Positions 41,823 to 63,711 of a stretch of 64,000 nt of DNA are shown here, piece by piece. The DNA is from Anaerolineae bacterium. GTDB lineage: Bacteria > Chloroflexota > Anaerolineae > CAZYHC01. The notes beneath the pieces were generated by a model. That model had not been told where the DNA came from, ran no database searches, and was given only the letters and a program-made list of their open reading frames with translations. The position numbers were made by a program, and so were the translations under genes. Position 1 is the first letter of the stretch. Every line of letters begins with the position of its first letter. Where the stretch lies: positions 4,996 to 68,995 of the forward strand of contig DAOULT010000051.1 of NCBI GenBank assembly GCA_034417895.1, in the 5' to 3' direction.

Positions 41823-42152
41823 GTGGCATACGTAGTTGAGTTTTGGAGATCCAAATCTGGCTGGCACCAATTGTCTAGAGAGGAGAGAGAAGTCATGGTT
41901 GCGAAGTGGGACTCTCTCCTTTTATCCCTGCCTACCGCAGACGGAGCAGAGCCAACCCTTAAATGGTGCTGCTTCAACCATTGCGCAACGCCTTTCGACC
42001 TCCTTGTCCTTAGCGCACGCGAAGAATACGATCTGGCCGAACCTGGGGCTGATGTCCTCCAATTTAACTGGTCTCGATATTTTGAGAAAGTGGCCTTCAC
42101 CATCGGCAATCTCACCGCTGAAGAATACGCCCGAAAGCTCCATCCCTCGTAG
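41823..42152 (+). CDS. Hypothetical small cytoplasmic protein (109 aa, GTG start) in a low-GC islet.
   Basis: Strong promoter plus RBS. Non-repetitive protein-like sequence MAYVVEFWRSKSGWHQLSREEREVMVAKWDSLL... No family recognised. Confidence 0.5.
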   Translation: MAYVVEFWRSKSGWHQLSREEREVMVAKWDSLLLSLPTADGAEPTLKWCCFNHCATPFDLLVLSAREEYDLAEPGADVLQFNWSRYFEKVAFTIGNLTAEEYARKLHPS

Positions 42153-42514: not shown

Positions 42515-45394
42515 TTACCTGACCCTCACCTGGCCTAGCAGTATCCGGTCCGCCCTGCTTTCGCTCAGGACGGACAGTCTTTCGCCGCTGGCCGGGTCGT
42601 ATAGCCCGACCTCGATGGTGTACTGGCCCGCTGGCGCCTCGGCCCCGACCGCTAGCTTGTACTCATCGACCACGATCTCACCCTCCAGCCAACTGGTGGT
42701 CGGTCGCCCGGCGGGGATACGATCCTGCTGGCCCCATATCCGGCTTTGCCCATCCAGCAGGTGAACGAAGGCGGTGTAAGAGGTGTCCAGCGGGCGCAAA
42801 GCCTGCCAGTAAAGCGTCAGGGGCAGCGACTCCCCGGCCTGCACCTGCTCTGCGGGCAGATCGTAGCCCAAAAGCGCCACCAGCCCGCCCAGGTCGGCCT
42901 CTATGGGGTGCTGGATTTCGGGCCTCTCGAAGAGCCTGGCCCAACCTTCGACCGGCAGGGTGGTCAGTTCGGCTTCCTGCTCCGTTTCGCTCCCGGCCTT
43001 CAGCGCTACGGTCAGGCGGTACTCCCCCGGCTCGACGGCAGCCGGGACGATGAAATCGTGCCAGCCGCGCAGGATTTCGCCCGCCTGCCAGGCGGTGGTG
43101 GGGTAGCTTTTGCCCGCCGGGGGGGATTCTCGTTCGGCGATGGTTTCGCCCCCTGCATTTTTCAGGCGCATCACCGCCCGATAGTTGGCCGTGGTCTTTT
43201 GCCTGGCCTGCCAGTAAAGCGCCAGACTGATCCTGTCGCCGGGCCGCACCGTCGGCGAGGCTGACAGGTCGTAACCGAGCAGGCGAATACCCTCGCTCAG
43301 GTCTAGCGAAAGAGGGTGCTCTGGCTCGACGGTGGCCGGGTAGAGAGCCGGGGTCACTTCCACAGAGCCGACATCAACTGCCGTTCCCAGGCGCTCCCCG
43401 CTTTCCTCTTCGTACACCAGGAAGCGCAGTTGATAAGCGCCCGGCGGCGTGGCCGGGGCGATGGGCACGAGGTAGTAGTCTATCGTCTTCAGGCCCTTTT
43501 CCCAGCCGGAAGTGCCCCGATAAGCGTTATCCAGCAGGAACTTATCGACCTGGCCGACCACGTGCCCGTTTTCATCGAGCAGCCTGACCGAAGCCTTGTA
43601 ATCCTTTTCGACAGTCCCCTCCCGCTGCCAGTGAGCCATCACCCAGGCTCGTTCTCCAGAAGGCGCCTTTTGTCCATTGACGTCCTCTGCGGGCCAGGCA
43701 GGGCCATAAGCCACGTCGGATAGAGTTAGCGCCTGGCCGAAAGTGACTCCCAGCGGCTCGAAATCGGGCCAGGCGGAAAAATCCACCCCGGCGTAAGGCA
43801 GCCGGTAAGTGACCATCTCGTAGCCCCGGTACTCCTCTTCGGCCACGAACTGGCCGTACTTTTCGAGCAGGAACACGACGTAGCCTTTCAGATTGGCCTG
43901 GTCGTGTTTGGTCACTTTCCAGCGATTGATGAAATGCACGGTGTCTTTGCCCTGGCAGGCGGCGGTTAGCTCGCGGGGTATGGTTTCGTCGTCTATTTCG
44001 AGGTAGCGATAGGCGGCCTGGCCGTGATACAGAAAGTCGATGGTGTAGTTGTGACGCTTTGCCCGGCGGGGGTCCCAGGGCAGGATGAAGACCGCTTTGG
44101 GGTTGGTTTCTCGCTCCATGTGGGCCACCAGGTCAACGGCGTGGCCGTCGAAGGCGTGGTACGGGGCTTCGCTCGCGGCCCAGACCTGGAAATAGTCGTG
44201 ACAGGTAGCCCAAAGCGTGAGGCAAAAAGGCGCAGCCACCAGCACGGGCAGAACCAGCCGGGCCGGAAGACGAACCTTTGCCAGCAGGGGACGGGCGGCA
44301 TCCCATACCACCGCCAGCGACAGGGCCGGGAAGACGTACACCACCGGCAGCGCTCCGATGGCCTTGCGGCAGGAAAGCGGCCCGAAAGAGGATAGCACGC
44401 TGGGCAAGAGCATGATCGCCCACCACGCCAGGCAAAAAAGGTGAGCCGGGCGCCTGATCTGCATCAGGCAGATGAGCAGGCCAGCCCAGAAACAAACGGC
44501 CAGAGCCGGATCGAGCACCGGGCGGCCCGGCAAACCGGCCTCCCAGGAGCTATCGCCCCGCAACCCGAAAGCGGCCAGCGCCCCCACCACGTTGCGGCCC
44601 AAAGCTCCCAGGACGCTGCCCTGGTTGACGATGGGATTGAGGATGGAAACCTGCCCGGCCCGCAGGGTGAAATCTTCGGGGTGCAGCAAAAAGTGGCCGC
44701 CCAACGGAGCGAAAACGAGCAGCGCCACCAGAACGCAAAGGATGAGCAGCCTGAACTGCTTTCGTAAAAGAGCCGCTTCGCTCCCGGCCAGAAGCCACTG
44801 ACCCAAAAAGAAGAAAAGCAACACGAAGGACAAAAACCGCGACGATAAATAAGTGTACATGGAAAGCCCCAGGAAAAACCCGGCCAGGACGAAATCGCGC
44901 CTGCGGCCCACGTTCAAAGCTCGCCACAGGAAGTAGAAGCAGACCGTTTCCAACAGGGGCAGGGTAATGAGCCGGTAGCCGATGCGGCTGTAGCTCACGT
45001 GCCAATAGGAAGTAGCCAGCCCCAAAGCAGTCAGGGCAGCCATCAGGCGCGAGCGCGGCCCACGAAACATCTGGCCGGCCATCAGGTAAGTGGTCAACAC
45101 GGTGGCGGTGCCCACCAGGGCGGCCAGCGTCCGCTGCTCCCGGATGCCGGGGCCGAAGAGGGCGAAGGTCCCGGCCAGCAGGTATTGCCACAGCGGTTCG
45201 CGGCCCGTGGTGCGGGGGAAGAAGATGCGCCACTGGCCGTCCAGCACTTCCACCGCATCCAGGGCGTAAGCGGCCTCGTCACCGCTGAAGCCCGGCGGCG
45301 CGGCGTCCAACTGGTACAGCCGCAGGAAGGCGGCCAGGGCCAGGATGAGCAGCAAAAAGGCCCAGTCCACTTTGTTCGTTGTTTTGGCGCTCAT
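42515..45394 (-). CDS. GT-C fold (GT39/PMT-ArnT-like) polytopic membrane glycosyltransferase with three C-terminal copies of the novel ~115-aa repeat domain (cluster gene a, last gene).
   Basis: True start is ATG 45394 (MSAKTTNKVDWAFLLLILALAAFLRLYQLDAAPPGFSGDEAAYALD...), overlapping the upstream stop (ATGA). The 390-aa N-terminal extension in track ORF 42515..46570 is Arg/Pro-rich read-through. C-terminal repeats ...LLGYDLSASPTVRPGDRISLALYWQA... and ...VALLGYDLPAEQVQAGESLPLTLYWQALRPLDTSYTAFVHLLDGQSRIWGQQDRIPAGRPTTSWLEGEIVVDEYKL..AGQYTIEVGLYDPASGERL. Confidence 0.75.
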   Translation of the reverse strand: MSAKTTNKVDWAFLLLILALAAFLRLYQLDAAPPGFSGDEAAYALDAVEVLDGQWRIFFPRTTGREPLWQYLLAGTFALFGPGIREQRTLAALVGTATVLTTYLMAGQMFRGPRSRLMAALTALGLATSYWHVSYSRIGYRLITLPLLETVCFYFLWRALNVGRRRDFVLAGFFLGLSMYTYLSSRFLSFVLLFFFLGQWLLAGSEAALLRKQFRLLILCVLVALLVFAPLGGHFLLHPEDFTLRAGQVSILNPIVNQGSVLGALGRNVVGALAAFGLRGDSSWEAGLPGRPVLDPALAVCFWAGLLICLMQIRRPAHLFCLAWWAIMLLPSVLSSFGPLSCRKAIGALPVVYVFPALSLAVVWDAARPLLAKVRLPARLVLPVLVAAPFCLTLWATCHDYFQVWAASEAPYHAFDGHAVDLVAHMERETNPKAVFILPWDPRRAKRHNYTIDFLYHGQAAYRYLEIDDETIPRELTAACQGKDTVHFINRWKVTKHDQANLKGYVVFLLEKYGQFVAEEEYRGYEMVTYRLPYAGVDFSAWPDFEPLGVTFGQALTLSDVAYGPAWPAEDVNGQKAPSGERAWVMAHWQREGTVEKDYKASVRLLDENGHVVGQVDKFLLDNAYRGTSGWEKGLKTIDYYLVPIAPATPPGAYQLRFLVYEEESGERLGTAVDVGSVEVTPALYPATVEPEHPLSLDLSEGIRLLGYDLSASPTVRPGDRISLALYWQARQKTTANYRAVMRLKNAGGETIAERESPPAGKSYPTTAWQAGEILRGWHDFIVPAAVEPGEYRLTVALKAGSETEQEAELTTLPVEGWARLFERPEIQHPIEADLGGLVALLGYDLPAEQVQAGESLPLTLYWQALRPLDTSYTAFVHLLDGQSRIWGQQDRIPAGRPTTSWLEGEIVVDEYKLAVGAEAPAGQYTIEVGLYDPASGERLSVLSESRADRILLGQVRVR

Positions 45395-48288
45395 AGCCCG
45401 GCTCCTTCCACTTCTATTTCGCTCAACTGGATGGCGTCTCGTCCGTCGGGGGTAGCCAGCCGTTGACCGCTTACGGCTTCGTACAGGCCGACTTCGAGCC
45501 TGTAACGACCGGGCGGCGCGTCGGACCTGATTTCCAGCCGGTAGTCGTCGGCGATGATTTCGTCCTGCACCCAACTGGTGGTGGGGAAAATCGGCGGGCG
45601 GTCCCGCTGGCCCCAGATGCGGCCCGATTGATCCAGCAGATGCACAAAAACGGTGTAACTGGTATCTGTCTCGCCTGGCGCCCGCCAGTAAAGCCGCAGG
45701 TTCAAAGTCTGGCCTGCTTTCAAGTTCGTCTCTTCTGTTTCGTAGCCCAAAAGCTCCGCCACTCCGCCCAGGTTCGCCCGCACGGGGTGAGCCACAGAGG
45801 GCGGCTCGAAGTTTCTGGGCCGCTCCCGCACCGTGACCGCGCCCAGCGTGGCCTGGCCTTTTTCCTCTTGAACGACTGAAGTCGTTACTACGCCTGCCCC
45901 CAGCAGGGCCACCGTCAACTGGTAATCCCCGCCCGGCAGGCGCCCGCTGACGACCATCTCCTGGCGGTCGCGCACTATCTCCCCTTTCTGCCAGGCGGTG
46001 GTGGGGTAGCGGGGACTGTTCAGCTTTTCGGCCCACACCTGGCCCGACCCGTCCAGGAAGCGCAGGGCTACGGTGTAGTCGCCCTTTACGTCTGTTTCGG
46101 CCCGCCAGTAGAGGACCGGGGCAAGTATTTCGCCGCCCTGAATTTCGCCGCCTTCGAAGTCGTGGCCTAGCAAGGTGATTTCGTCTCCCATTTTCTGCTC
46201 CAGGGCGTACCGCATCGTCAGCTCGTCCGCTGGCGGGAAGGCTTTCGGCCTGACTACCGCCAGGCGGCCCAGCGCCAGGTCGTGGCCCACTCCGGCCTCG
46301 CCCACCGCCTCCAGGGTGCGGCCCGTCTGGAAAGAGTACAGCCCGGCGTGCAAAGTGTACTCTCCCGGCGGAGTGCCCGGCAAAACCTGTAAGTCGTACT
46401 CGTCCACGATGAACGTACCTGGCTGCCAGCGGTCTGTGGCCCAGTAGCCCATCACCGGCAGGCGGTCCACCTGTCCCCAGGGGTGGCCTTCTTCGTCTGC
46501 CAGCCGCAGGTAGACGTTGTAACTTTCGCCCATTTCGGCCAAAGCCTGCCAGTAAAGCGTGACGTGACATTCCCCGCCCGACTCCACCCTGTCCGGGCGC
46601 AAATCGTAGCCTGAAAGTCGCGCCTGTTCGCCGAAGAAGCCGCTTACGGGGTGCGCTATCTGCGCTGGCGGCTCGAACCCGACCACCGGCCCCCGGTAAA
46701 TCCAGGCGTAGTCTATCCCGGCCAGGCGCACCACATGCTCAGCCTGTCGCCCCTGGAAGTAGTCCACCAGCCCGGCCAGAGGCAGGCCGCGTTGGGTCTG
46801 GTTGAGGTAGAAAACGGCGTAGTCCGCGCCCAGGGTTGGCTCGGCGTCGAACAGGTCTACCGTCCGCCCCCGGAAGAAAGGCTCAAACTGGCGGCTGTAC
46901 CAGGCGGCCACCTCCAGCTTCTCGGCCTCTGGTTTGGCGTTCAGGTAGCGGGCCGCCTCGTCCAGTCCCTCGCCCCAGCCGACCGATAGCGCCCAGGGAG
47001 CCAGCCGCCCGCCGCCGACCAGCGGATCGTAGTAAGTGATATAATACGGGAAATGCGGCAGGGCAAAAGCGGCCTGTAAAACCAGGGCGAAGCCACAGAG
47101 TACACCGAGAACACGGAGAGATTTGGCCTTAATCTCTGTGCCCTCTGTGGCTATAAAAAGGTGCCACAGCCCGAAAGCGGCCAGCACGTCCACCGCCGGA
47201 AAAATGGGCAAAAGGTAGCGGTCGCCTTTTTTGTGTCCCACCGTCACCAGCAGAGCGAAGCCCAGGGCGTAAAGCAACAGGGACAGTATGGCCCTTCGAC
47301 TTTCCCCCGCCCGGTTTCTGATCCACAGGAACAGGGCCGCCGCCAGCCCCAACAAAACCGGCGGCGTGCTCCTGAAAAGGAAGCTCACCGGGTAGAAAAG
47401 CGGGCCGGGGTCGGCTCTGGCCTGGCCGAAGAGAAAGGTGCCTTTGGCGTGGGGGGCGAAGGTGGCCGCCCTGGCGATGTCCCACACCGCTTTGATCGCT
47501 CCCAAAGGATCGACCCACAGCACCGGCCACAGAGCCAGCGCCACCAGAGCGGCTGCCAGGCTCCAGATCACGAACTGGCGAAGGCTTGAGCGCCCGCGAT
47601 GAATCAAAGCAACCACGCCCCAGAAGGGCAGGAGAAAAACGGCGGTCGATTTGGTCAAAAAGGCCAGCCCTGCGCACAGCCCCGAAAACACCAGGTAAAA
47701 CAACGAACGGAACAACGTAGAAAGACCCTTTGGGTTTTCAAAATCCAAAGGGTCTGCCAAATGAACGAGCAGGCTCAAAGCCGAAGCGATCATAAAAGTC
47801 GCCACCAGAGCGTCGTGATGAATGAAGCGCGAATGGGCCAGGTAAAAAGGGTCGAAGGCCAGCAGGAGGGCGGCGGCCACCCCCACCCCGGCTCCGAAAA
47901 GCTCCCGGCTCAGCCAGTAAACGGCCACCACGCACAGGGCGGCCAGCAAAACAGTCGGCATCCGCACGGCGGGCATCAGCTCAGGCGGGGCCGGATAGGG
48001 TATGGAATCCAGGAACTCCGCCAGGGGCAGGCCGCGCTGCCAGGCGTAAAGCGTAAGCCCGATGGCCCCTGTCCAGCGGGTGGTCACGGCTGGCCCGGCC
48101 CAACCCGGAAAGCTTTCGGCCAGGTTTCCACGCAGCAGAGCGGCCAGGAATTGGCCTGACCATTGCACCCAGTCCAGCTCGTCGCCGGTCAGAAAGAAGT
48201 CCAAGGCTAACGCTCGTGGCGCGAAGCCTAGCAGGAACAAAACGGCCATCAAAGCGCCTTCGCGCCTCCAATCGTTTCTTTCGCCCAT
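45391..48288 (-). CDS. GT-C fold membrane glycosyltransferase (GT39-like, GDELDWVQW motif) with three C-terminal repeat-domain copies (cluster gene b, paralog of 52088..54928).
   Basis: Start trimmed to ATG 48288 (MGERNDWRREGALMAVLFLLGFAPRALALDFFLTGDELDWVQW...). An alternative is ATG 48249. Three LSGYDL/LLGHDF/LLGYETE...LYW(Q/R)A repeat units. Confidence 0.7.
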   Translation of the reverse strand: MGERNDWRREGALMAVLFLLGFAPRALALDFFLTGDELDWVQWSGQFLAALLRGNLAESFPGWAGPAVTTRWTGAIGLTLYAWQRGLPLAEFLDSIPYPAPPELMPAVRMPTVLLAALCVVAVYWLSRELFGAGVGVAAALLLAFDPFYLAHSRFIHHDALVATFMIASALSLLVHLADPLDFENPKGLSTLFRSLFYLVFSGLCAGLAFLTKSTAVFLLPFWGVVALIHRGRSSLRQFVIWSLAAALVALALWPVLWVDPLGAIKAVWDIARAATFAPHAKGTFLFGQARADPGPLFYPVSFLFRSTPPVLLGLAAALFLWIRNRAGESRRAILSLLLYALGFALLVTVGHKKGDRYLLPIFPAVDVLAAFGLWHLFIATEGTEIKAKSLRVLGVLCGFALVLQAAFALPHFPYYITYYDPLVGGGRLAPWALSVGWGEGLDEAARYLNAKPEAEKLEVAAWYSRQFEPFFRGRTVDLFDAEPTLGADYAVFYLNQTQRGLPLAGLVDYFQGRQAEHVVRLAGIDYAWIYRGPVVGFEPPAQIAHPVSGFFGEQARLSGYDLRPDRVESGGECHVTLYWQALAEMGESYNVYLRLADEEGHPWGQVDRLPVMGYWATDRWQPGTFIVDEYDLQVLPGTPPGEYTLHAGLYSFQTGRTLEAVGEAGVGHDLALGRLAVVRPKAFPPADELTMRYALEQKMGDEITLLGHDFEGGEIQGGEILAPVLYWRAETDVKGDYTVALRFLDGSGQVWAEKLNSPRYPTTAWQKGEIVRDRQEMVVSGRLPGGDYQLTVALLGAGVVTTSVVQEEKGQATLGAVTVRERPRNFEPPSVAHPVRANLGGVAELLGYETEETNLKAGQTLNLRLYWRAPGETDTSYTVFVHLLDQSGRIWGQRDRPPIFPTTSWVQDEIIADDYRLEIRSDAPPGRYRLEVGLYEAVSGQRLATPDGRDAIQLSEIEVEGAGL

Positions 48289-48316
48289 TGGCGTCGTTCG
48301 TCTTGTCCGTTGCGCG

Positions 48317-50188
48317 CTATTGTGGCTCAAGCGTGACTTCTCCCAAAAGGATCTGGTCGTTGCCCAATCTTTCGCCCGTATGCGGCGAATACAGCCCCAC
48401 CGCCAGCCGGTAACGGCCTGGCGCAAGCTCTTCCCCGAAGGGCAAAAAGTGGCGGTCGGGGATGATTTCGCCCGGCCTCCAGGCGGTGGTGGGCAAAAGC
48501 CCGTGCAGAGGTGGGCCATCGGCCTGCGCCCGCACCTGGGGCGCGTCGTCGAGCAGGTGGACGAAAACGGTGTAATCAGCGTCCATTTCGGCCCTGGCCT
48601 GCCAGTAAAGCGTAAGTTCCAAAAGGCCGGATTCCTGCTCCAAATCGTAGCCCAAAAGCCGCGCCACTCCCCCCAGGTCGGCCCTCAGAGGGTGTTGAAT
48701 CTCGTCCGCCGAGGGGCGGAGGGCGTAGAAGATGCGGCGCTGGTCGTCGTAGACGCGCTGAATCAGGTAGTTTTCTTCCGCCCAGGCCAGGTAATCCGGC
48801 AACAGGAGCAGAAAGCGCCCACTCCAGGAAATGACCACCGGGGGGCGATATTCTTCCGTCTGGGCCAGAAGCTCCTCGACGGTCAGATACCCGCTCTTGA
48901 TTAGCACGATGGAAGTGTCGGCCAGGGAAGGCGGCGTATGCCGGCCGGCGCCAAAGACCAACATCTGGTCGTCGCTGATGATCCAATCGTGGGCGGTGGT
49001 GATCTTTTGCAGCCAGGCGACCGCGTCTTGCTCCCGGCCACCCTGCGGCGCGGCAGAGGCTTCGAGGTTGGCTTGTATCGTGGCCGGCAGGCTCCACAGG
49101 TAAAACGCCAGAGCGCCCAGCCCCAACCAGGCCAGTGGTGTTTTGCGCCGGGCGAGGTCGGTCAGGTGGCTCGCCATCTGGCCGAACGCTCCTCCGGCCA
49201 GGATAGCCAGCGGCGGCAAAAATACGGTCAGTTGATGGTCACGCAGGGGCGTATGTACCATCATGGTCGTAACCGCCAGTAGAAGCCAGACCGCAGCCCA
49301 CCAGATTGGCCGCGATTTTCTTAACCCCAGGGCCAGCCCGCCGTAAAGGGCCAGGATCACCAGCCCCCGGTGGGTCAGAAAATACTCGGCGATGCATCGC
49401 CCGTTTTGGAGAGGATTCAGAGGATAGGCTTCTCTGACCTGCCAGCGGAAGGCTACCACCTGCTCGTACATGGCCCGGCTGTCGAGGCTCAGAAGGCAGA
49501 GCAGCAAGGGCAGAGCCAGACCCAGCCCGAAAACGAGCAGATCCAGCGCTGTCTTCTGCCCTCTCCTCTCCTCCGAAAAGCGATGCCAGATGACGATCAG
49601 GGTCACCAGGAACACGGCGAAAGGGGAAAGCACTTTGATCAGCAGGCCAGCCGCCAAGCTCAGCCCTGATAGCGCCAGCCAGCTTCTCTGGCCCCGCCGA
49701 CAGTAGTAAAAAGCAAGGAGAATGGAAAATGCCCCCAACCCTACAGCGGGCACGTCGCCCAGGCAGGCCCTTGAGTAGAGAAAGAAGTCCGGGGTGATAG
49801 AAAGCAGGATCACGGCGGTGATGGCAGCCACACGCCCTGCTATCCTGCGGGCAATAAGCCCCACGGCCAGAAGGCCGGACATCGAATAGAGGACGATGAT
49901 CGTCCGCGCCGCCGCCGTCGTCGTGCCCAAAACCCTGAAAGCCAGGGCAATGGAAGCGATGAAGAGCGGGGCAGACAAAGAGAAAACGTCGGCGTATAGA
50001 CGCTGCCCGGAGTTCATCAGCCGGGCCAGCATTATGTGTGTTCCCTCATCGTTTTCCCAGCCAAAGCCCTCCAGGCCATGTAGCCGCACGACCAGAGACA
50101 AAGCCAGGATGCCGAGCAAAGCGACCCGGTAGATCAACTCGGCCCGCTCCATGCTTGTGGCCTCAGCGTCATTCCTTCCAGCGGCCAT
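48317..50188 (-). CDS. GT-C fold membrane glycosyltransferase (ArnT/GT83-GT39-like) with one C-terminal repeat domain (cluster gene c, paralog of 50189..52084).
   Basis: MAAGRNDAEATSMERAELIYRVALLGILALSLVVRLHGLEGFGWENDEGTHIMLARLMNSG... polytopic. C-terminal IQHPLRADLGGVARLLGYDLEQESGLLELTLYWQARAEMDADYTVFVHLLD...PGRYRLAVGLYSPHTGERL. Confidence 0.75.
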   Translation of the reverse strand: MAAGRNDAEATSMERAELIYRVALLGILALSLVVRLHGLEGFGWENDEGTHIMLARLMNSGQRLYADVFSLSAPLFIASIALAFRVLGTTTAAARTIIVLYSMSGLLAVGLIARRIAGRVAAITAVILLSITPDFFLYSRACLGDVPAVGLGAFSILLAFYYCRRGQRSWLALSGLSLAAGLLIKVLSPFAVFLVTLIVIWHRFSEERRGQKTALDLLVFGLGLALPLLLCLLSLDSRAMYEQVVAFRWQVREAYPLNPLQNGRCIAEYFLTHRGLVILALYGGLALGLRKSRPIWWAAVWLLLAVTTMMVHTPLRDHQLTVFLPPLAILAGGAFGQMASHLTDLARRKTPLAWLGLGALAFYLWSLPATIQANLEASAAPQGGREQDAVAWLQKITTAHDWIISDDQMLVFGAGRHTPPSLADTSIVLIKSGYLTVEELLAQTEEYRPPVVISWSGRFLLLLPDYLAWAEENYLIQRVYDDQRRIFYALRPSADEIQHPLRADLGGVARLLGYDLEQESGLLELTLYWQARAEMDADYTVFVHLLDDAPQVRAQADGPPLHGLLPTTAWRPGEIIPDRHFLPFGEELAPGRYRLAVGLYSPHTGERLGNDQILLGEVTLEPQ

Positions 50189-52084: not shown

Positions 52085-52087
52085 TCC

Positions 52088-54928: not shown

Positions 54929-57392
54929 TGATTGTCACCTCTTGCAAAAAGACGCTATTGCCCTGCGGATTGCCGGCCTGGTCAAAAACTTCCAGGCGTT
55001 GGCCGCTTTCGGGTTGGTAAAGCCCGGCCAGCAGGGGATGGCGGCCAGGCGGGGTATCGGCCCCGACCGGCACCCGATAACGCTCGATCACAGGGTGGCC
55101 GGGCCGCCAGTCCGACGTCCGGTAAAAGCCGCACAGGGGCAGCCCATCCCGCTGGCCCCAAATACGCTCGTTGTTGCGCTCGTCTTCCAGGTGGATGAAA
55201 ACGCTGTAATCCTTTTTCATGGTGGTCAGCGCTTCCCAGTAAAGGGTCAGAACCAGGCTCCCCCCTGGCTGCGCCTTCTCGCTCTCCAGATCGTAGCCCC
55301 GCAGGCGGATACGGTGGCCCAGGTCGGCGGTCAGAGGATGAGCAGGGGTCGGCCGCCGGGCGACGGCCTCCGGCGTCGTGCCCCGATCAAAAGCGGATTC
55401 CGCCTCCCGCGCCTCGCAGGTTATCGAGGAGGCTTCGGCCGGGGGATGGCGGTAAAGGCGCAGTTCTGGCTCGCCGTTCACCGTGACCACGCCCATCGGC
55501 GCGTAGCCTTCAGGCAGGGAGACTCCGAGCCGCTCGTCTCGCACCCGGTCGGCCATGATGTAGTACTCGGCGTCAGGGCAGTAGGAGCGTATGGCGCCCC
55601 GCGCATACCAGGCCGTGATCTCGCCCTCCTCGTTGCTGTTGTAATCGCCCCGCAAGACCCCCTCGGCGTAAAGCTGCCCGATGGCCTTCCACCCGGCCCG
55701 ATAAGGGAAGCCAAAGAAAGCGGCGGGAGGCAGGTGGCGGTAAGCTGTCCAGTAGAGAGAGCTTCTGTGGGCCGGATAAGTCCAGATGTATTGCGGTTCG
55801 CACTGGATAAAGGCCAGGTAGATGTATCCGGCAAAGACCAGGTACAAAAGGATAAACACGCCCGTAGTAACGATTTCAATCGTTGTCTTCGCGGTTGGAC
55901 GACTAAAGTCGTCACTACAAACCCGCAGGCGCTGCCACATATCATCCAGCCCCAGTCCGGCCATGAGCATCCAGGCCGGGAAGAAGGTGTAAACGTGAGT
56001 CAGGGGATGCGCCACCAGAAAGGTGTAGAGCAGGAAAGGGACCCCAAACCAGATCAGGCAGGTCATCCATTCCACCGAAAAGAAGGACGCCCGGCCAGCC
56101 CTCAGACGCTTAACCACCGCCCAGGCCAGGGCCAGAATAATGAAAACAAAATAGTAAGTCGAGTTGTAGACCGTGCTCTGCAAAAAAGTAAAGCCCAGGT
56201 TGTTGTGGAGAAGCCCGCTCCCCAGGCGCCGGCCTACCAGATAGCGGTAAGTGGTGGTCGCCTGGGGATCGAGCCAGAAGGGGAGATAGAAAAGGCCGCT
56301 CAAGACCAGGAATATTGCCAGCGCTAAGACGTAGCCCCGCAGCTCAACGCCTTCCCCCTTCCACTTCTTTCGGCTTTTCCAGGCCAGGTAAAGGATGGCG
56401 GGCAGCACCAGAGCGGCATCGTAATGGGCCAGAAGGCCGCAGGCGGCAAACAGCGCCCCAGGAACCTGATAGCGCCCGGCCCCTTCAGCGTAGAAACGGT
56501 AGTAACAGTAAAGGGCCAGGCCCATCATCAAAAAAACCAGGCTTTGATATTGCACGATGCGGGCGAAGCCCACGAAATAGCCGTTGATGGCGGCCAGGGA
56601 TGCGGCCAGCCACCCGACACGCAGGCTGAACATGCGCCCTCCCAGGAGATAGACCACTCCTACCGCCAGCAGACCGGCCAGGGCGAAAGGAAAACGCGCT
56701 CCCGCCTCGTCGATCCGGCCCGTGAGAAGCCAGCAGGCGGCAGGGAGCAGAATCTCGGCCGGGCCTTTGCCGTGGGCGAAAAGGGCGTCGTCCCAGCCCT
56801 CGATGACCTGGGCGGCTCTTAACATAACCAGGGCTTCGTCGCCCTGAAACTCGGAATAGCCCAGGGAGGCGAAACGAAAGAACGAAGCCAAAACTATAAC
56901 CACCAGGAGCACGCTGACACGGATTTTGGTCACGGATATCACGGATTCCACCATCGATCGTGCCTTGAGCCGTGAAATCCGTGACCCTAATCTGTGTTGG
57001 CTCTTTCCCATCCACAGCGCCAGGGCCAGAGGAGCAAGGATAAGCGCATCGCAGACGATAAGCAGTGAAACGGAGGTCAGGCGACCGGGCAGATAATGTA
57101 GAAGCAGCGCGCCCACCAGCGAGAGGGCGTAACTGGCTCCACAGCCGAGCACAATTCTCTCTATCAGGTCGGTCTCGGCGGCCAGGGGGATAAGCTCCAG
57201 CAGAGCGAAGCCGGGCAGGATGCAGAGCAACAGGACGGCGCTCGCGTAACGCACGGGCCAAAAATCAACGGCCAGCAGAACCGCGTTAGCCCCGACCAGA
57301 GCCAGGACGAGCCAGAAAAACCCTCCCGGCCTCCAACCCCGACCATCGCCTCCCGACCGTATATTATTTCTTCCCATTCCAATTTCTGCCAT
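54921..57392 (-). CDS. GT-C fold membrane glycosyltransferase (GT39-like, FQGDEALVMLRAAQ motif) with one C-terminal repeat domain (cluster gene f, paralog of 59798..62179).
   Basis: ATG at 57392. C-terminal AHPLTADLGHRIRLRGYDLESEKAQPGGSLVLTLYWEALTTMKKDYSVFIHLEDERNNERIWGQRDGLPLCGFYRTSDWRPGHP...PGRHPLLAGLYQPESGQRL. Contains an in-frame AATCCGTG palindromic element at 56925..57002. Confidence 0.75.
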   Translation of the reverse strand: MAEIGMGRNNIRSGGDGRGWRPGGFFWLVLALVGANAVLLAVDFWPVRYASAVLLLCILPGFALLELIPLAAETDLIERIVLGCGASYALSLVGALLLHYLPGRLTSVSLLIVCDALILAPLALALWMGKSQHRLGSRISRLKARSMVESVISVTKIRVSVLLVVIVLASFFRFASLGYSEFQGDEALVMLRAAQVIEGWDDALFAHGKGPAEILLPAACWLLTGRIDEAGARFPFALAGLLAVGVVYLLGGRMFSLRVGWLAASLAAINGYFVGFARIVQYQSLVFLMMGLALYCYYRFYAEGAGRYQVPGALFAACGLLAHYDAALVLPAILYLAWKSRKKWKGEGVELRGYVLALAIFLVLSGLFYLPFWLDPQATTTYRYLVGRRLGSGLLHNNLGFTFLQSTVYNSTYYFVFIILALAWAVVKRLRAGRASFFSVEWMTCLIWFGVPFLLYTFLVAHPLTHVYTFFPAWMLMAGLGLDDMWQRLRVCSDDFSRPTAKTTIEIVTTGVFILLYLVFAGYIYLAFIQCEPQYIWTYPAHRSSLYWTAYRHLPPAAFFGFPYRAGWKAIGQLYAEGVLRGDYNSNEEGEITAWYARGAIRSYCPDAEYYIMADRVRDERLGVSLPEGYAPMGVVTVNGEPELRLYRHPPAEASSITCEAREAESAFDRGTTPEAVARRPTPAHPLTADLGHRIRLRGYDLESEKAQPGGSLVLTLYWEALTTMKKDYSVFIHLEDERNNERIWGQRDGLPLCGFYRTSDWRPGHPVIERYRVPVGADTPPGRHPLLAGLYQPESGQRLEVFDQAGNPQGNSVFLQEVTIIE
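56925..57002. repeat. Palindromic short repeat element of the AATCYGTG family (ggtcacggatatcacggattcc...gccgtgaaatccgtgaccctaatctgtgttggct), in-frame inside GT-C gene f.
   Basis: Inverted arms read directly. Related copies are at 28900..28965 and 29195..29240 (inside GT-C gene 28530..30149). The element shares the 3' tail ATCTGTGTTGGCT with the element at 31076..31092. Confidence 0.6.
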
Positions 57393-57407
57393 TGGAATGT
57401 GATTTTA

Positions 57408-59801
57408 TCACTTTTCCCCGAATCTTTCAACCCTCACCGGGCCAAGCAGAATGTGGTCGCTTCCATCCACAGTCAGCCGTTGGCCGCTTTGGGCTTCGTA
57501 TAGCCCTACCTCGACGGCATATTCCCCGGCTGGAGCATCGGGCGGGGCGGCGATCTCGTACACGTCCTGGATGAACTCGCCCTCTACCCACAGACTGGTG
57601 GGCGCCGCGCCTCGGACGGGCGGGTTGTCTTTTCCTCCAAAAACTCGCCCCTCCTCATCGAGCAGGTGGGTGAAAACGGTGTAATCCTGGTCCATCCCGG
57701 CCAGGGCCTGCCAGTAGAGGGTCAGGCGCAGGGCGTCGCCGGCCCTAACTGTGGCCGCCAGATCGTAACCCACCAGGCGCACCACTCCGCCCAGGTCAGC
57801 CCCTACCTGGTGCTGCACTTTTGGCCGGGCGAAAATCCGCCGGGCCTCGATACCCCTGGGCATCCCGCACCGTTTGCCGAATTCCATCAGCCGGAGCGCT
57901 GTGCCGTTGGCCGGCAGCCTGGGAGCCAGGGCCGCATCCCGCACCTGGGGCTTCAGGCGGCGGCCCACTTCCCAGGGGTCGGTCCCATCCACCACGCCCA
58001 GGGCAATGCCGTAGCGCGCCCGGTCGCGGGTGTACCACGACAGGGTATCAGCCACCACGCGCACCGTTTCCCCCGGCTGCCAATGACTGGTCGGGTGCCA
58101 GACCGTCACCGGCTGAGGCTGGTCGGTGCTGCCTGTGACGTTCCCTTCCTCGTCCAGAAGGTAGAGGGCGATCAGATAATCCCGCTCCACCTCCTGCAAG
58201 GCCGTCCAGTACAGGTTGAAGTTGACTTCTTCTGCGCGGTTATAGAGAACGTCGAAGCCCAGAAAACGCAACTCGGAGCCGAAATCGACCGTCATGGGAT
58301 ACTGGATGGCGGGGTTGTCCACCGTGACGAAGCTATAGAAATCGCGAGATAAAGGTTGATGCGGCGCGCCCCGGCGGAGCAAGACGTAACCGTCCTGGCT
58401 GGCTATCACCCCGAAATCATCTGCTGTCTCGATCCAGTCCTGGAGAGAGCCGTGCACGTTGTCCTTGTTGGGCAGGGTGGATACGTCCAGGAACACGTAT
58501 TCTATATCGTCGCGGTGGACGACCTGGTAAACCCGTCGGCGCTGGCTGACGTGGGGGTTGAGGTTGATCTGGGCGCTCAGGACGGCATCCGGCGGGATCA
58601 TTTCGATGAACTTCTGGGCCAGGCGGTGGTGGGCGGTGACGGGCGGCCAGCGGAAGGGGGCGGCCAGCGGTGAGAAACCACGACAGTAGTGATAGCCCAC
58701 ACTGACCACCAGCACGAGGGCCGACAGGAGATGGACCAACCTCCGAGAATCGAGTTTCAGCCAGCGGCTCAAGGTTTCGCTCAGGGCTTCAAGGCCATAG
58801 ACGCCAGAGACCAGGACAAAGGGCACGATGGGGGCCGCATAGTGAAACTCCTCCAGGCGGTGCATGAAGGCGTCCTCGCTGAGCAGGTTGACGGCCAGGG
58901 AGGGCAGGGCCAATACCAGGGTCAGAGGGCTTAACAGGGACAGGAAGGCCAGGGGCAAAAGCAAGCCTTTCAGATAGTTTAAGGCCCCGGCTTTCGACAA
59001 TTGATCGACCACGACCCCCGGCTGGCCGAAGATGGTTTTCACCATCTGCCAGGGGGTGTCGCCCAGGTAGGCGTAGCGCCTGACGTGGATGTTAGCTCCC
59101 ATCGGGCTGAAGGGCGGGGTGATGACGAAAACGGCCAGAAAGAACCACAACCCCGCCCCCAGGACGGTCAGCCATCCGGCTCGCCGCTCCCGCTGCACGA
59201 CCAGAATGTACAGCCCCATGGCCGCCACCAGCAGACACATATCCTCCTTGCAGCTCATGGTCAAGATGGCGAACAGGGCGAAAGGACGATAAGCCCTCTT
59301 TTGCAGGAAATAGAAAGCGGCCAAGAGACAGGGAACGGCCAGGGTTACAGCGTGGAAGTCGAACAGATTGGCCGCTTCCAAGGCGGGGAAAAGCAGATAG
59401 GCGGCGGCGAAGGCCAGCGCGGCAAAATCGCTCTTCAGCCTGTCCCTGGTCAGCAGAAAGGCAGGCCAGGCTCCCAGAGCCAAGACCACCGTTTGCAGCA
59501 CCAGCAGAGTCAGCGGGCTGGAATAGAGTAGATAAGTCAACGAGACGACCAACAGGATAGGCTCAAAGTGCAGCGCCAGGCGGCTCTCCAGGCCGTCCAT
59601 CTCGATGCCGTCCATGTTGGTGAAGCAGAAGAGGCAGCCGTGCAGGGTGTTATAAACCGCCTGATCGACGTTGCCCAGGTCGTAGCCGTGAGTTTCGAAC
59701 ACGGCGTGGCGGTGGATGGACAGGGCGCTGAAGGTCACGGCGTAGAGGACGACCAGCAGCCAGAGCGCAGCCACAAAAAAGCGAGAGGGATCGCTTTTCA
59801 T
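57408..59801 (-). CDS. DUF2079-like polytopic membrane protein (GT-C-like putative glycosyltransferase) with two C-terminal repeat domains (cluster gene g).
   Basis: N-terminus ...SIHRHAVFETHGYDLGNVDQAVYNTLHG... resembles DUF2079 (from recollection, not certain). C-terminal LRFLGFDVLYNRAEEVNFNLYWTALQEVERDYLIALYLLDEEG... and VRLVGYDLAATVRAGDALRLTLYWQALAGMDQDYTVFTHLLDEEGRVFGGKDNPP...AGEYAVEVGLYEAQSGQRL. ATGA overlap with gene h. Confidence 0.65.
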   Translation of the reverse strand: MKSDPSRFFVAALWLLVVLYAVTFSALSIHRHAVFETHGYDLGNVDQAVYNTLHGCLFCFTNMDGIEMDGLESRLALHFEPILLVVSLTYLLYSSPLTLLVLQTVVLALGAWPAFLLTRDRLKSDFAALAFAAAYLLFPALEAANLFDFHAVTLAVPCLLAAFYFLQKRAYRPFALFAILTMSCKEDMCLLVAAMGLYILVVQRERRAGWLTVLGAGLWFFLAVFVITPPFSPMGANIHVRRYAYLGDTPWQMVKTIFGQPGVVVDQLSKAGALNYLKGLLLPLAFLSLLSPLTLVLALPSLAVNLLSEDAFMHRLEEFHYAAPIVPFVLVSGVYGLEALSETLSRWLKLDSRRLVHLLSALVLVVSVGYHYCRGFSPLAAPFRWPPVTAHHRLAQKFIEMIPPDAVLSAQINLNPHVSQRRRVYQVVHRDDIEYVFLDVSTLPNKDNVHGSLQDWIETADDFGVIASQDGYVLLRRGAPHQPLSRDFYSFVTVDNPAIQYPMTVDFGSELRFLGFDVLYNRAEEVNFNLYWTALQEVERDYLIALYLLDEEGNVTGSTDQPQPVTVWHPTSHWQPGETVRVVADTLSWYTRDRARYGIALGVVDGTDPWEVGRRLKPQVRDAALAPRLPANGTALRLMEFGKRCGMPRGIEARRIFARPKVQHQVGADLGGVVRLVGYDLAATVRAGDALRLTLYWQALAGMDQDYTVFTHLLDEEGRVFGGKDNPPVRGAAPTSLWVEGEFIQDVYEIAAPPDAPAGEYAVEVGLYEAQSGQRLTVDGSDHILLGPVRVERFGEK

Positions 59802-62179
59802 TTAACCATCACCTCTTGCAACAGCACGCTGGTCCCCTGTGGGTTCCCGGCCAGGTCGAGGACGTCGAGGCGCTGTCCGCTGACAGGCTCATAGAGGCCG
59901 ACGGTCAACGGATATCGGCCCGGCGGCGTTTCGGGGGAGATGGGCAAGCGGCGGCGGTCAACGATTACCGTGCCAGGCCGCCAGGCGTTGGTTGGGTAGG
60001 TGCGGCAGACGGGCACGCCGTCGCTCTGGCCCCAGACGCGGTCTGATTCCAGGTGGCTGAAGACGTAGTAGTTAGTGCTCAGGCGTTTTTCGACCTGCCA
60101 GTAAAGCGCCAGCCGCAGGCTACCAGCCGGGTGGGCGCGGCTGGCGTCCAGGTCGTAGCCCAAAAACTGCACCTGGGCAGAAGGGCCTTTCAGCGTGATG
60201 TTCAGAGGGTGGTCAATGGCTGGCTTCCCAACCATGTTTCGGGATGTGATCCGGCGGTCGAAGTCGGCTTCGTAATCCCCGGCGGCGAGGGGGCCAAAAT
60301 CGGCCTGGGCCTGGGGATGTCGGTAGATGCGCAGCCTGGGTTTGCCCCCGACCAGCACGCTGCCAGCCGACACGTACTCTTCCGGCACGTCGCCGATGGG
60401 TTGTTCGTCTTGCACGTTTTCGGCTATCAGGTAGTAGTCGGCGGCCTCTTCGGGGCAGGCGCGGGGCGCGTGGCGCGTATACCAGAAGGTGATGACGTCC
60501 TCCTCGTTGCTCAGGTAATCGCCTCGTAGCGCCCCGGTGCGATAAAGTTCGCCCACCGCCTTCCACCCGGCGCGGTAAGGAAAGCCGAAATAACCTTCCG
60601 GGGGCAGCTCGTCGTAAACTGTCCAGTAGAAGTCATTTTTGTGGGCCGGGTAGGTGCGTTTGTATTCCGGGTCGTGCCAGACGAAGACCATAAAGATGTA
60701 CCAGGCAAAGACCAGGTAGAGGGCGACGAAAACCGCCCGCCCGGCCATGGCCCATCTAATCCTCCCCAACAGCCTGTCAATCTCATCCAGGGCCAGCCCG
60801 GCCAGCAGCGTCCAGCCCGGGAAAAGGGTGTAAACGTGGGTCAGCGGTTTGGCGACGAAAAAAAGGTAAAACGCGGCGGGTACAGCCAGCCAGATGAAGC
60901 ACGCTGTCCGACCCACATCAAGCCTGGAAAGAGCAGCCAGCACCGCCCAACCCAAAAGCAGAGGCAGAAAGACCAGGTAGTAAGTCGAATTGTAAACCGT
61001 GCTCAGCACGAAGAAAGAAGGCAGGTTGTTCACAGGCAGGCTGTGGCCTAGCCTTTTGCCCTCCAGGTAGCCATAGGTGGACGCAAACTGCTGGTCGGCC
61101 ACGAAGGGCGGGTAAAAAAGCAGCGGCACGACCACTGCCAGAAGCAGGCAAAGGGCCAGCCATTTTTTGCCCCCGGCCCACTGCCCGGCCAGCAGGTAAA
61201 GCGCCGCCGGAAGAATCAGCACGGTATCATAGTGGGTCAGCAGGCCGAAGCCCAAAAACAGTCCGCTCAATAAAGCGTGACCCCCGGCCCGGTTGGCGCG
61301 GAAACGGTAAGCGCACCACAAAGCCAGCCCGCTCATAGCCAGCACCAGGCTTTGATACTGCACCACCCGCCCAAAGCCGACAAAGTAGCCATTGACCGCC
61401 AGAAGCAGTCCGGCCAGAAATCCTACCCGCTGGTTGAACATGCTGCGGCCTAGCAGGTAGAGGGCCGCCACACCCAACAGGGCGGCCAGGGCGAAAGGCA
61501 TACGCGCCCCCCATTCCGTGATCCGCCCTGTGAGCAGCCAGGTGGAGGCCGGGATCAGGATCTCTGCCGGGCCTTTAGCGTGCGTGAACAGGACGTGATC
61601 CTGTCCCTCGAGGGCCTGGGCCGCCTTGAACATAACCACCGCTTCGTCGCCTTGGAATTCGGAATAACCCAGGAAAACCAGGCGCGGCACAGCAGCAACC
61701 ACCAGCAAGACCACCAGCGACCAGTTACAATCGGAGGCCAGGCGGCTGGCTCCCTTCATAACCGCGAAGAGCACGAAGGACACAAAGTCTTTATCTTCAC
61801 ACTCCTGGTGTTCTTTGTGCTCTTTGTGTCCTTTGTGGTGAAAAGCTCTGATCAGGAGCAAGGGCGCAAGGGTCAGCAGGTCGCAGGCCAGGAGGATGGA
61901 GGCCACGCTCATGGGGCCAGGCAGGTAGTGCACAATCAGCGTGGTCAGCGACGAAAGAACGTAACTGAGGCCGCCGCCGAGCGTCAGACGCTCCACCCCA
62001 CTGACATCCCCGGCCAGCTCCATGAGGGCCAGGCCGGGCAGGAAGAAGAGCAGCAGAACGGCGCTCAGATAGCGTAAGACCGCCAGATCGGTGAGAATTA
62101 TGAAAACATTAGCCGCCGCCAGGGACCCAATAAGCCACAGATGCTTGCGTTTCCAAAGAAGATACGCAGGAGGAGCCAT
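59798..62179 (-). CDS. GT-C fold membrane glycosyltransferase (GT39-like, FQGDEAVVMFKAAQ) with one C-terminal repeat domain (cluster gene h).
   Basis: Start trimmed to ATG 62179 (the track start at 62182 is TTG). Paralog of gene f. C-terminal IDHPLNITLKGPSAQVQFLGYDLDASRAHPAGSLRLALYWQVEKRLSTNYYVFSHLESDRVWGQSDGVPVCRTYPTNAWRPG...PGRYPLTVGLYEPVSGQRL. Carries an in-frame palindromic element at 61783..61860 encoding HKGHKEHKEHQECEDKDFVSFVLFAVMK. Confidence 0.75.
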   Translation of the reverse strand: MAPPAYLLWKRKHLWLIGSLAAANVFIILTDLAVLRYLSAVLLLFFLPGLALMELAGDVSGVERLTLGGGLSYVLSSLTTLIVHYLPGPMSVASILLACDLLTLAPLLLIRAFHHKGHKEHKEHQECEDKDFVSFVLFAVMKGASRLASDCNWSLVVLLVVAAVPRLVFLGYSEFQGDEAVVMFKAAQALEGQDHVLFTHAKGPAEILIPASTWLLTGRITEWGARMPFALAALLGVAALYLLGRSMFNQRVGFLAGLLLAVNGYFVGFGRVVQYQSLVLAMSGLALWCAYRFRANRAGGHALLSGLFLGFGLLTHYDTVLILPAALYLLAGQWAGGKKWLALCLLLAVVVPLLFYPPFVADQQFASTYGYLEGKRLGHSLPVNNLPSFFVLSTVYNSTYYLVFLPLLLGWAVLAALSRLDVGRTACFIWLAVPAAFYLFFVAKPLTHVYTLFPGWTLLAGLALDEIDRLLGRIRWAMAGRAVFVALYLVFAWYIFMVFVWHDPEYKRTYPAHKNDFYWTVYDELPPEGYFGFPYRAGWKAVGELYRTGALRGDYLSNEEDVITFWYTRHAPRACPEEAADYYLIAENVQDEQPIGDVPEEYVSAGSVLVGGKPRLRIYRHPQAQADFGPLAAGDYEADFDRRITSRNMVGKPAIDHPLNITLKGPSAQVQFLGYDLDASRAHPAGSLRLALYWQVEKRLSTNYYVFSHLESDRVWGQSDGVPVCRTYPTNAWRPGTVIVDRRRLPISPETPPGRYPLTVGLYEPVSGQRLDVLDLAGNPQGTSVLLQEVMVK
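61783..61860. repeat. 78-bp (26-codon) palindromic repeat element inserted in-frame in a loop of GT-C gene h. It is homologous to the element at 30995..31092.
   Basis: gagcacgaaggacacaaagtctttatcttcacactcctggtgttctttgtgctctttgtgtcctttgtggtgaaaag. Internal inverted repeats cacaaag/ctttgtg. It replaces the loop region that in paralog f holds a different repeat element. Confidence 0.7.
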
Positions 62180-62550
62180 CAATGCTGTCTTTGCTCCGGG
62201 AGTCGGAAGTCCACCACCGAGCCTAGCAGGCTCTCGTAGCCCAGGCCGGTGGTGAAGATCATAGCCAATTGCACGATGGTAGGCTCGGCGTGGTTCAACT
62301 GCACCTGACGATAAACCACGGGCAGCAAAACTATCCCGCTGATAGCGCTGACGATCAACGAACGCGGGGAGAAAAAGCAGCCTCCCCGCTGCAAGGACCT
62401 CAGGTAATTGTTGGCGATGATGCCGACCACCAGCGCCAGATAGATGTACAACTGCCAGTCCGTGGTAAGAGCGTGGGCGGCTGTTGCCGCCTCGGTTCCT
62501 GGGCCTGCCGCCGCCCCGCTCAGATCGAAGTAATTAAGCAGCCAATCCAT
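62179..62550 (-). CDS. Small 4-TM membrane protein heading the GT-C array (possibly GtrA-like / lipid-linked sugar translocation accessory). Function unassigned.
   Basis: ATG at 62550 (MDWLLNYFDL...) with a strong RBS agaagggggg 10 nt upstream. The track start at 62559 is TTG. The stop overlaps the start of gene h by 1 nt (TGATG). Confidence 0.5.
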   Translation of the reverse strand: MDWLLNYFDLSGAAAGPGTEAATAAHALTTDWQLYIYLALVVGIIANNYLRSLQRGGCFFSPRSLIVSAISGIVLLPVVYRQVQLNHAEPTIVQLAMIFTTGLGYESLLGSVVDFRLPEQRQH

Positions 62551-63707: not shown

Positions 63708-63711
63708 AAAG

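Follow-up and report, generated by a model that had tools for sequence, protein, structure and literature searches.

A recurrent but plastic array of GT-C glycosyltransferases sharing a C-terminal beta-sandwich in Chloroflexota: a candidate toolkit for surface glycan assembly

What purpose is served by eight large membrane glycosyltransferases encoded one behind another on the same strand? The question is raised by a stretch of 64,000 nt from an Anaerolineae bacterium (contig DAOULT010000051.1 of assembly GCA_034417895.1, hereafter the window), in which an array of nine minus-strand genes, named i, h, g, f, e, d, c, b and a from first to last, occupies positions 42515-62550, that is 20,036 nt (Table 1). 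Sediments, soils and wastewater sludge are rich in Chloroflexota, bacteria whose envelope is not well understood; the layering of this envelope is a matter of debate (PMC7332563). The array was pointed out in an earlier note made from the letters of the window alone, and the analysis reported here suggests that it probably encodes a plastic set of extracytoplasmic GT-C (glycosyltransferase fold C) enzymes acting on a shared surface acceptor.

The identity of the enzymes is the first point to be settled. The eight large proteins are GT-C enzymes as had been expected, seven of them of the PMT_2 type and one of the DUF2079 type, on the evidence of Pfam and of the fold of g. PMT_2 is matched, always above the cut-off of 26.1 bits, in h (E 2e-17), f (3.6e-14), e (2.4e-14), b (1.7e-13), c (3.2e-11), d (6.8e-11) and a (1.6e-10). 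Matches to PMT are partial and limited to e (E 1.3e-10), b (3.9e-8), c (2.3e-6) and f (3.4e-5), spanning about 110-150 of the 245 model positions, which is approximately half of the model. Neither MIR nor PMT_4TMC is matched in Pfam by any array protein, so that the domain set of a full GT39 PMT is lacking, and there is likewise no Pfam match to Arabinose_trans, the core of the Emb/Aft type. In NCBIfam no model reached its cut-off with any array protein, the ArnT (GT83) models included, and only weak matches to Agl23 and archaeal STT3 were obtained. The f and h proteins possess about 140-170 additional N-terminal residues, helical, ahead of the PMT_2 core, and DUF1616 is weakly matched in h. 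Each of the seven PMT_2 proteins has one DE dipeptide a few residues past the first core helix, and both of its residues are kept in the homologues of c and d (D47 and E48, at least 90% conserved). This dipeptide corresponds to the loop-1 DE motif, which is essential in PMT-family enzymes.

The remaining enzyme, g, which the note had described as DUF2079-like, matches DUF2079 (PF09852) over its full length (profile positions 1-459 of 459, E 1.2e-65, 222.8 bits vs a cut-off of 28.2). In the loop that follows helix 1 (DLGNVD) D41 is invariant among 63 sequences, in which N44 and D46 reach a conservation of at least 90%; by homology this loop, as well as the DE loop of the other seven enzymes, would face outward. 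A profile-profile comparison of the g family (three sequences only) with the c/d family gave a probability of 1.3%, and since sequence profiles failed to link g to c/d, the GT-C status of DUF2079 was examined by structure. The AlphaFold model of g, based on 63 homologues, has a predicted local distance difference test score (pLDDT) of 94.3 and a predicted template modelling score (pTM) of 0.90. ArnT, Pmt4 and Pmt2 are among its best fold matches, AftB, AftA, AftD, PimE and EmbA are found too, and ALG12, ArnT, AglB and PglB fit the model about equally well. Judged from this model DUF2079 is a GT-C family, in which case all eight large genes encode GT-C enzymes. They would use a polyprenyl-phosphate-linked sugar donor, for which the GT2 and flippase-like genes of related arrays (see below) are indirect evidence.

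All eight enzymes end in an immunoglobulin-like (Ig-like) beta-sandwich of about 130 residues, detected with a hidden Markov model (HMM) built from the eight C-termini. Proteins a, b and e have three copies apiece and g has two, while a single one is found in c, d, f and h, which brings the total to 15. One copy was modelled confidently by AlphaFold as a beta-sandwich (pLDDT 94.2), whose best whole-domain match in Foldseek is the Aquifex Wzt domain in complex with 3-O-methyl-mannose (8dky; TM-score 0.65/0.60), followed by the lipid-binding sandwiches of the NPC2/ML kind. Conserved aromatic residues are W37, Y47 and W78 (numbering of alignment A2). No Pfam or NCBIfam model captures the domain; Wzt_C is the sole Pfam family matched by more than one copy, always under the cut-off, and in the whole-protein scan protein a reached 19.4 bits vs the 30.4 required (E 0.0011). 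The earlier claim of a repeat fused to each enzyme is therefore confirmed and the repeat resembles a carbohydrate-binding module (CBM) by fold, whereas the glycan binding ascribed to it is suggested from the fold only. According to the model the sandwich is Ig-like and its nearest functional relative, that of Wzt, binds a glycan terminus; the array sandwiches may do so as well, and they are probably located outside the cell. The C-terminal Ig-like modules of other GT-C enzymes, namely GT136 ORF12, EmbC and AftD, bind acceptor polysaccharide (PMC11127046).

A census among 1.84 billion cluster representatives returned 29,579 sandwich-bearing representatives at E <= 1e-3, 20,306 at E <= 1e-10 and 6,061 at E <= 1e-30, and by these profile matches the family is very large, with about 20,000-30,000 clusters at 50% identity. 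Its fusion partners were determined with Pfam in 50 of the best 150 sandwich-bearing proteins. PMT_2 was present in 32 of them, PMT in 11, TMEM260-like domains in 5, PTPS_related in 4, and YfhO and STT3 in 1 each; non-glycosyltransferase families occurred in few of the 50, and DUF2142 is also labelled among the homologues of c (precomputed Pfam labels). Almost all cores to which the sandwich is joined are of the GT-C type, and they come from several families. As one sandwich is carried by many GT-C cores, a common feature of the acceptor is indicated, most simply one envelope glycan.

Two other explanations of these domains have to be considered, both of them unlikely. According to the first, the array would serve protein O-glycosylation, its products being PMT- or TMEM260-like O-mannosyl (or hexosyl) transferases, each for a different secreted, S-layer or sheath protein, with sandwiches that bind protein. 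Such a view can draw on the partial PMT matches of b, c, e and f, on the PMT-family DE motif, on the presence of Pmt4 and Pmt2 among the best fold matches of g and of TMEM260-like cores among the fusion partners, and on the fact that Ig-like folds often bind proteins. However, MIR and PMT_4TMC are missing and only about half of the PMT model is covered, the equally good fit of ALG12, ArnT, AglB and PglB to g means that the fold does not indicate a protein acceptor, and the closest relative of the sandwich with a known function has a glycan cap as its ligand. The second explanation, to which we give about the same low weight, holds that the sandwiches act as stalks or spacers, mediate oligomerisation or bind lipids in the way of ML/NPC2 proteins, which come next after Wzt in the fold search, and that they say nothing of a common acceptor.

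Do the nine genes belong together? The nine consecutive minus-strand open reading frames (ORFs) were all found at the coordinates claimed, the start of gene b being set at 48288 by homology to e (its raw ORF extends to 48519, into c). Four junctions overlap, i/h by 1 nt (TGATG), h/g and b/a by 4 nt each (ATGA) and f/e by 8 nt; the gaps amount to 28 nt between c and b, 15 nt between g and f, 3 nt between e and d and 0 between d and c, where the stop of d abuts the start of c. Only 46 of the 20,036 nt are thus non-coding. The junction read-out agrees with what had been described, and the dense packing fits the single operon proposed there; it is plausible that the nine genes make up one transcription unit. 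Terminator-like sites are not enriched within the array (30 found vs 22.1 +/- 4.9 expected), and the order i-h-g-f-e is identical in the close relative GCA_964646625.1 (L006), though the upstream genes differ there. The exact genes of the array are also present on an NCBI contig of 79,835 bp and in run SRR14802572, and an exact copy of c was found on a Logan contig.

The paralogous pairs proposed before are borne out by BLASTP, with an identity of 44% over 965 aligned positions for b and e (full length), 45% for c and d and 48% for f and h, and with a and g left as singletons. The accompanying idea of a repeatedly duplicated two- or three-gene module has to be rejected: read by type, the order h g f e d c b a becomes FH, G, FH, BE, CD, CD, BE, A, which lacks a pattern of tandem blocks, and h/f as well as e/b are already separate in the relative. 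The duplications are old (44-48% identity), and the split of h from f and of e from b predates the divergence from L006. A ninth PMT_2 gene without the repeat domain is indeed present elsewhere in the window, and it has no BLAST similarity to the eight array enzymes.

The comparison with L006 is the most informative about the stability of the array. Its orthologues are 77% identical for i, 76% for h, 87% for g, 81% for f, 81% for e and 80% for a b-like gene; the ratio of non-synonymous to synonymous substitution rates (dN/dS) of these six shared genes is 0.20-0.34 at a dS of 0.29-0.38, and the sandwiches are conserved as well as the cores. After e there are two short ORFs, which are fragments of d covering residues 22-151 and 364-471 (73-96% identity by fragment and method), and the last array gene is the b-like one, encoding 990 aa. 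Genes c and a are missing, save the 3' tail of a: over its final ~110 nt the b-like gene is far closer to a than to b and has the same stop context, so that this gene is a b/a chimera with a crossover inside the third sandwich. The simplest history would be that the third sandwich repeat of b recombined with that of a, whereby a was lost. On the 3' side of the array L006 has the same small convergent gene (its product is 68% identical to that of the window) and the same GAF/TPR gene. In the window itself the frames and catalytic motifs of all eight enzymes are intact, which together with the purifying selection seen against the L006 orthologues rules out pseudogenisation, named in the earlier note as a possible refutation.

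The architecture is not confined to the window: co-directional runs of 4-9 genes for GT-C and sandwich proteins around DUF2079 recur in genomes and metagenomes of Chloroflexota. The homologues are named Anaerolineae, Caldilineae, Ktedonobacterales or unclassified Chloroflexota, in line with the Chloroflexi-type organism that had been supposed. A genome scan with a single protein gave only three loci, all of them distant, with four co-directional sandwich-bearing genes each. The order in L004 is PMT_2, PMT_2, PMT_2, DUF2079, LPG_synthase_TM, PMT_2/DUF2142, a family 2 glycosyltransferase (GT2) and YfhO, and L009 has five PMT_2 genes, DUF2079, LPG_synthase_TM, PMT_2 and GT2. In further contexts inspected by hand a PMT_2-type gene adjoins DUF2079 in every case (seven of seven). 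An f/h-type gene lies directly upstream of DUF2079 in L007 and L010, a b/e-type gene near it in L008, a c/d-type gene after it in L012 and an a-type gene, 36% identical to a over the full length, near it in L010. Content and order differ in every locus examined, down to L007, where only an h-like gene and g are present, and genes of the YfhO type and TMEM260-like genes occur in related arrays.

The metagenome set comprises 80 loci recovered with the g alignment, of which 70 have a called neighbour and 29 span at least 12 kb; its array counts are lower bounds, the subfamily HMMs being incomplete. A GT-C or sandwich gene on the same strand adjoins DUF2079 in 32 of the 70 loci, and at least six such genes, nine at most, occur in 11 of the 29 long ones. 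The gene composition of these arrays suggests that a PMT_2-type gene beside DUF2079 is their recurrent nucleus, with other members coming and going. The f/h, b/e, c/d and a subfamilies are ancient and are repeatedly found near DUF2079 in distant lineages. Genes that could supply the donor occur in the related arrays as well: in the metagenomic loci a flippase-like gene is directly downstream of DUF2079 in 15 cases, and 11 loci contain a GT2 gene. The best models of the GT2 proteins of related arrays are AglJ, PpgS, Dol-P-hexose transferase and ArnC, all under the equivalog cut-offs, and the LPG_synthase_TM proteins of L004 and L009 pass the cut-off of TIGR00374, 'flippase-like'.

Two sub-architectures recur in the metagenomic loci, one with a GT2 gene followed by an a-type gene (three sandwiches) and DUF2079, the other with a c/d-type gene followed by DUF2079 and a flippase-like gene (seen among L014, L019, L020; L024, L033-L035, L038, L041, L052, L060, L061, L066). 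An apparent tandem pair of DUF2079 genes in L013, L018 and L019 is possibly an artefact of ORF calling.

These comparisons bear on a reading close to that of the earlier note, which took the array for a machine. Eight enzymes would act in obligate sequence and polymerise one envelope polysaccharide, in the manner in which Emb, Aft and Mpt make the arabinan and mannan of mycobacteria. Eight GT-C genes in one tightly coupled unit, CBM-like domains as on EmbC and AftD, and the 6-9-gene arrays among the long metagenomic loci are what such an assembly line would lead one to expect. Nevertheless, L006 has kept its other five genes under purifying selection at the modest distance given above with c and a absent, d degraded and b fused to the tail of a, and array content and order vary in all of the loci examined. 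That L006 has lost three of the eight genes and that the content varies elsewhere argues against an obligate eight-step line and favours a variable toolkit, and we regard the assembly line as slightly less probable than either of the two explanations considered above. A mere collection of redundant or degenerating paralogues that share no function, for which the gene loss in the relative and the fairly high dN/dS might be quoted, is very improbable given eight intact frames with their catalytic motifs, a dN/dS well below 1 and ancient subfamilies co-located again and again in distant lineages.

The preferred explanation, a plastic set of extracytoplasmic GT-C enzymes with a shared surface acceptor, can be put as follows. 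In one operon-like unit the nine genes would encode eight GT-C enzymes, together with a small membrane protein specific to the lineage. Each enzyme would have a polytopic core whose acidic catalytic loop lies on the outside of the cytoplasmic membrane; a small alpha/beta domain would come next, and then one to three Ig-like sandwiches, which would likewise be outside the cell. Single sugars would be taken from polyprenyl-phosphate-sugar donors, which a GT2 synthase would make and a flippase-like protein would flip, both assumed to be encoded outside the window. The sugars would be moved to an extracytoplasmic acceptor, most likely a cell-wall, sheath or surface glycan, on which the shared sandwich would dock the enzymes, and the cores would differ in the sugar or the linkage that is added. 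Such a set would be modular and fast-evolving, partly through recombination between repeated sandwich domains, and the array would be a variable toolkit for building or decorating a glycan, not a fixed eight-step pathway.

Several observations weigh against this explanation and should be set beside it. The topology rests on homology to solved GT-C enzymes, and the helix counts from hydropathy are inconsistent. The matches of the sandwich to Wzt_C (PF14524) are sub-threshold and concern 2 of the 15 copies (best E 1e-4), and a sandwich profile searched against the PDB sequences found only RbmA (E 0.003). No GT2 synthase, flippase-like or sugar-nucleotide gene is present in the 64 kb window, with no match to Glycos_transf_2 among the 39 window genes scanned. 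DUF2079 is without recognisable GT-C neighbours in 12 of the 29 long metagenomic loci, which is an upper estimate given the incomplete HMMs. Finally, there is a promoter-like site between g and f, in the sole A+T-rich gap of the array, and it may be an internal promoter; with 4 such sites found in the region vs 3.1 expected, the evidence is weak.

A broader form of the same idea may be entertained tentatively, with clearly less confidence. The window would then be one instance of a phylum-wide extracytoplasmic glycan-assembly system of Chloroflexota that has not been described before, in which many GT-C families (PMT_2, DUF2079, YfhO, DUF2142, TMEM260-like and PTPS-related) would have come to carry one Wzt-like acceptor-docking sandwich, cluster around DUF2079 with GT2 and flippase-like genes and build a wall polysaccharide, a sheath or an outer layer. 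The sandwich repeats, as a substrate of recombination, would reshuffle the arrays and thereby diversify the surface glycan.

Among the known systems are EmbA/B/C, AftA-D, MptA-D and PimE, the GT-C enzymes that make arabinan and mannan in mycobacteria and corynebacteria. The analogy with Emb/Aft that had been drawn at the beginning is an apt one: there too a single envelope glycan is acted on, outside the membrane, by several GT-C enzymes that use polyprenyl-phosphate sugars. In EmbC and AftD the acceptor is held by carbohydrate-binding modules (PMC11127046; PMC3044687). In contrast to them, the array has PMT_2 and DUF2079 cores, a uniform Ig-like sandwich on every member, all genes in one operon-like unit, a content that varies between close relatives and a host from Chloroflexota. 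Three-component systems, such as O-antigen glucosylation by GtrA/B/V, the GT136 system of Citrobacter youngae and the teichoic-acid system CsbB/GtcA/YfhO, follow the logic of GT2, then flippase, then GT-C, and related Chloroflexota arrays resemble them in holding GT2 and flippase-like genes and also genes of the YfhO type; in GT136 ORF12 the acceptor is bound by a C-terminal Ig-like CBM. They differ from the array in having one GT-C enzyme instead of eight; the window has no GT2 and no recognisable flippase, and the flippase-like partner in related arrays is of the TIGR00374/LPG_synthase_TM type, not GtrA or MATE.

With PMT (GT39) and ArnT (GT83) the array enzymes have in common the PMT_2/PMT signature and a DE motif in the first outer loop, whereas MIR and PMT_4TMC are absent, no ArnT model of NCBIfam was reached and the C-terminal sandwiches are extra. 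The sandwich is 15-18% identical to the Wzt C-terminal domain (PF14524; 6o14, 8dky, 2r5o, 5hno), under the Pfam cut-off, and it is found on extracytoplasmic GT-C enzymes, often in tandem, unlike the Wzt domain, which belongs to a cytoplasmic ATPase. For DUF2079 neither the GT-C fold nor the two sandwiches appended in g are in the Pfam description. In the open-access literature searched, no described system of such an architecture was found, as had been presumed, and no relevant paper on DUF2079, on GT39 in Anaerolineae or on GT-C, ArnT or PMT_2 proteins of Chloroflexota. The principle is known, both for GT-C enzymes that act outside the cytoplasm and carry carbohydrate-binding modules and for a donor supply by three components. 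What looks new is the occurrence of one uniform Wzt-like sandwich across several GT-C families, the arrays of up to nine genes centred on DUF2079 in Chloroflexota, the assignment of DUF2079 to a fold and the recombination between repeats; no paper on any of these was found in that literature.

The array and its many kin are concrete candidates for the part of envelope glycan synthesis that takes place outside the cytoplasm, marked by a sandwich family on GT-C enzymes that Pfam and NCBIfam have missed, and L006 offers a natural example of gene loss and fusion via recombination between repeated domains. If the sandwich binds the acceptor, it would offer a way to the glycan itself and to predictions of specificity for orphan GT-C enzymes in their thousands.

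The first gene, i, was correctly recognised as coding for a small membrane protein, but instead of four transmembrane segments it has three hydrophobic ones (residues 33-50, 64-80 and 91-113, as read from the homologue alignment), of which crude hydropathy scans flagged only one and two. It has no Pfam or NCBIfam match, GtrA included, and an identity as GtrA was therefore rejected. Only two homologues were found in 5.8 billion proteins, and gene i heads the syntenic array in the relative GCA_964646625.1 (L002/L006); on this distribution it is a putative lineage-specific small membrane protein. Residues 32-116 are almost 100% identical among the three homologues, vs 76-87% for the neighbouring enzymes, an unusually strong constraint for an orphan protein.

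Table 1. Coordinates of the array, its sandwich domains and the surrounding features (positions in the window, except for the two rows marked L006)
Feature	Position	Strand	Description
Gene i	62179-62550	-	123 aa; small membrane protein; first gene of the array
Gene h	59798-62179	-	793 aa; f/h-type GT-C, one sandwich; DE motif 61643-61648
Gene g	57408-59801	-	797 aa; DUF2079 GT-C, two sandwiches; DLGNVD loop 59664-59681
Gene f	54921-57392	-	823 aa; f/h-type GT-C, one sandwich; DE motif 56835-56840
Gene e	52088-54928	-	946 aa, TTG start; b/e-type GT-C, three sandwiches; DE motif 54794-54799
Gene d	50189-52084	-	631 aa; c/d-type GT-C, one sandwich; DE motif 51929-51934
Gene c	48317-50188	-	623 aa; c/d-type GT-C, one sandwich; DE motif 50045-50050
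Gene b	45391-48288	-	965 aa, start inferred; b/e-type GT-C, three sandwiches; DE motif 48178-48183
Gene a	42515-45394	-	959 aa; singleton GT-C, three sandwiches; DE motif 45275-45280; last gene of the array
Sandwich of h	59801-60226	-	HMM
Sandwiches of g	57942-58316, 57411-57830 (span 57411-58316)	-	HMM; both modelled as beta-sandwiches
Sandwich of f	54924-55355	-	HMM
Sandwiches of e	52949-53341, 52499-52879, 52091-52489 (span 52091-53341)	-	HMM
Sandwich of d	50192-50587	-	HMM
Sandwich of c	48320-48712	-	Reference copy for the model
Sandwiches of b	46243-46668, 45814-46224, 45394-45804 (span 45394-46668)	-	HMM
Sandwiches of a	43343-43699, 42950-43333, 42518-42928 (span 42518-43699)	-	HMM
Sigma-70-like promoter match	57402-57430	-	10/12 with TG; g/f gap and end of g; consensus match only
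d remnant (L006)	17740-18452		Internally deleted, truncated
b-like gene (L006)	18439-21411		Last array gene of L006
DUF6036 nucleotidyltransferase gene	62573-63022	-	22 nt upstream of gene i
ORF without family	63113-63541	+
ORF without family	63375-63743	-
Small conserved gene	41823-42152	+	109 aa; convergent to the array; DUF6616, E 1.4e-5, just under the Pfam cut-off
Sigma-70-like promoter	41707-41735		12/12 with TG extension; ahead of the 41823-42152 gene
GAF/TPR protein gene			Downstream flank of the array; Pfam
tRNA-Val	38876-38949	-	Sole Rfam match in the window; adjoins the two genes of ~300 aa
Gene of ~300 aa	37908-38813	-	No Pfam family except a weak glycine-rich match
Gene of ~300 aa	36852-37763	-	No Pfam family except a weak glycine-rich match
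MacB/FtsX-like gene	32481-34715	-
HlyD-like gene	31096-32418	-
ABC ATPase gene	30146-31042	-
Ninth PMT_2 gene	28530-30149	-	Without sandwich; overlaps the ABC ATPase gene by 4 nt
LysM/DUF3426 protein gene	26511-27551
BNR-repeat protein gene	24648-25805	+
Sortase gene	23452-24387
CBM_11-containing protein gene	21388-23040

In the surroundings of the array, GC content falls to 0.52 around the DUF6036 gene, in place of which L006 has acetyltransferase genes. The ninth PMT_2 gene and the ABC ATPase gene lie downstream of the HlyD-like and MacB/FtsX-like genes, an arrangement that may link this sandwich-less GT-C enzyme to an exporter of the MacB type. Further away, the genes for the sortase and for the LysM/DUF3426, CBM_11 and BNR proteins (21388-27551) are typical of a wall-anchored surface.

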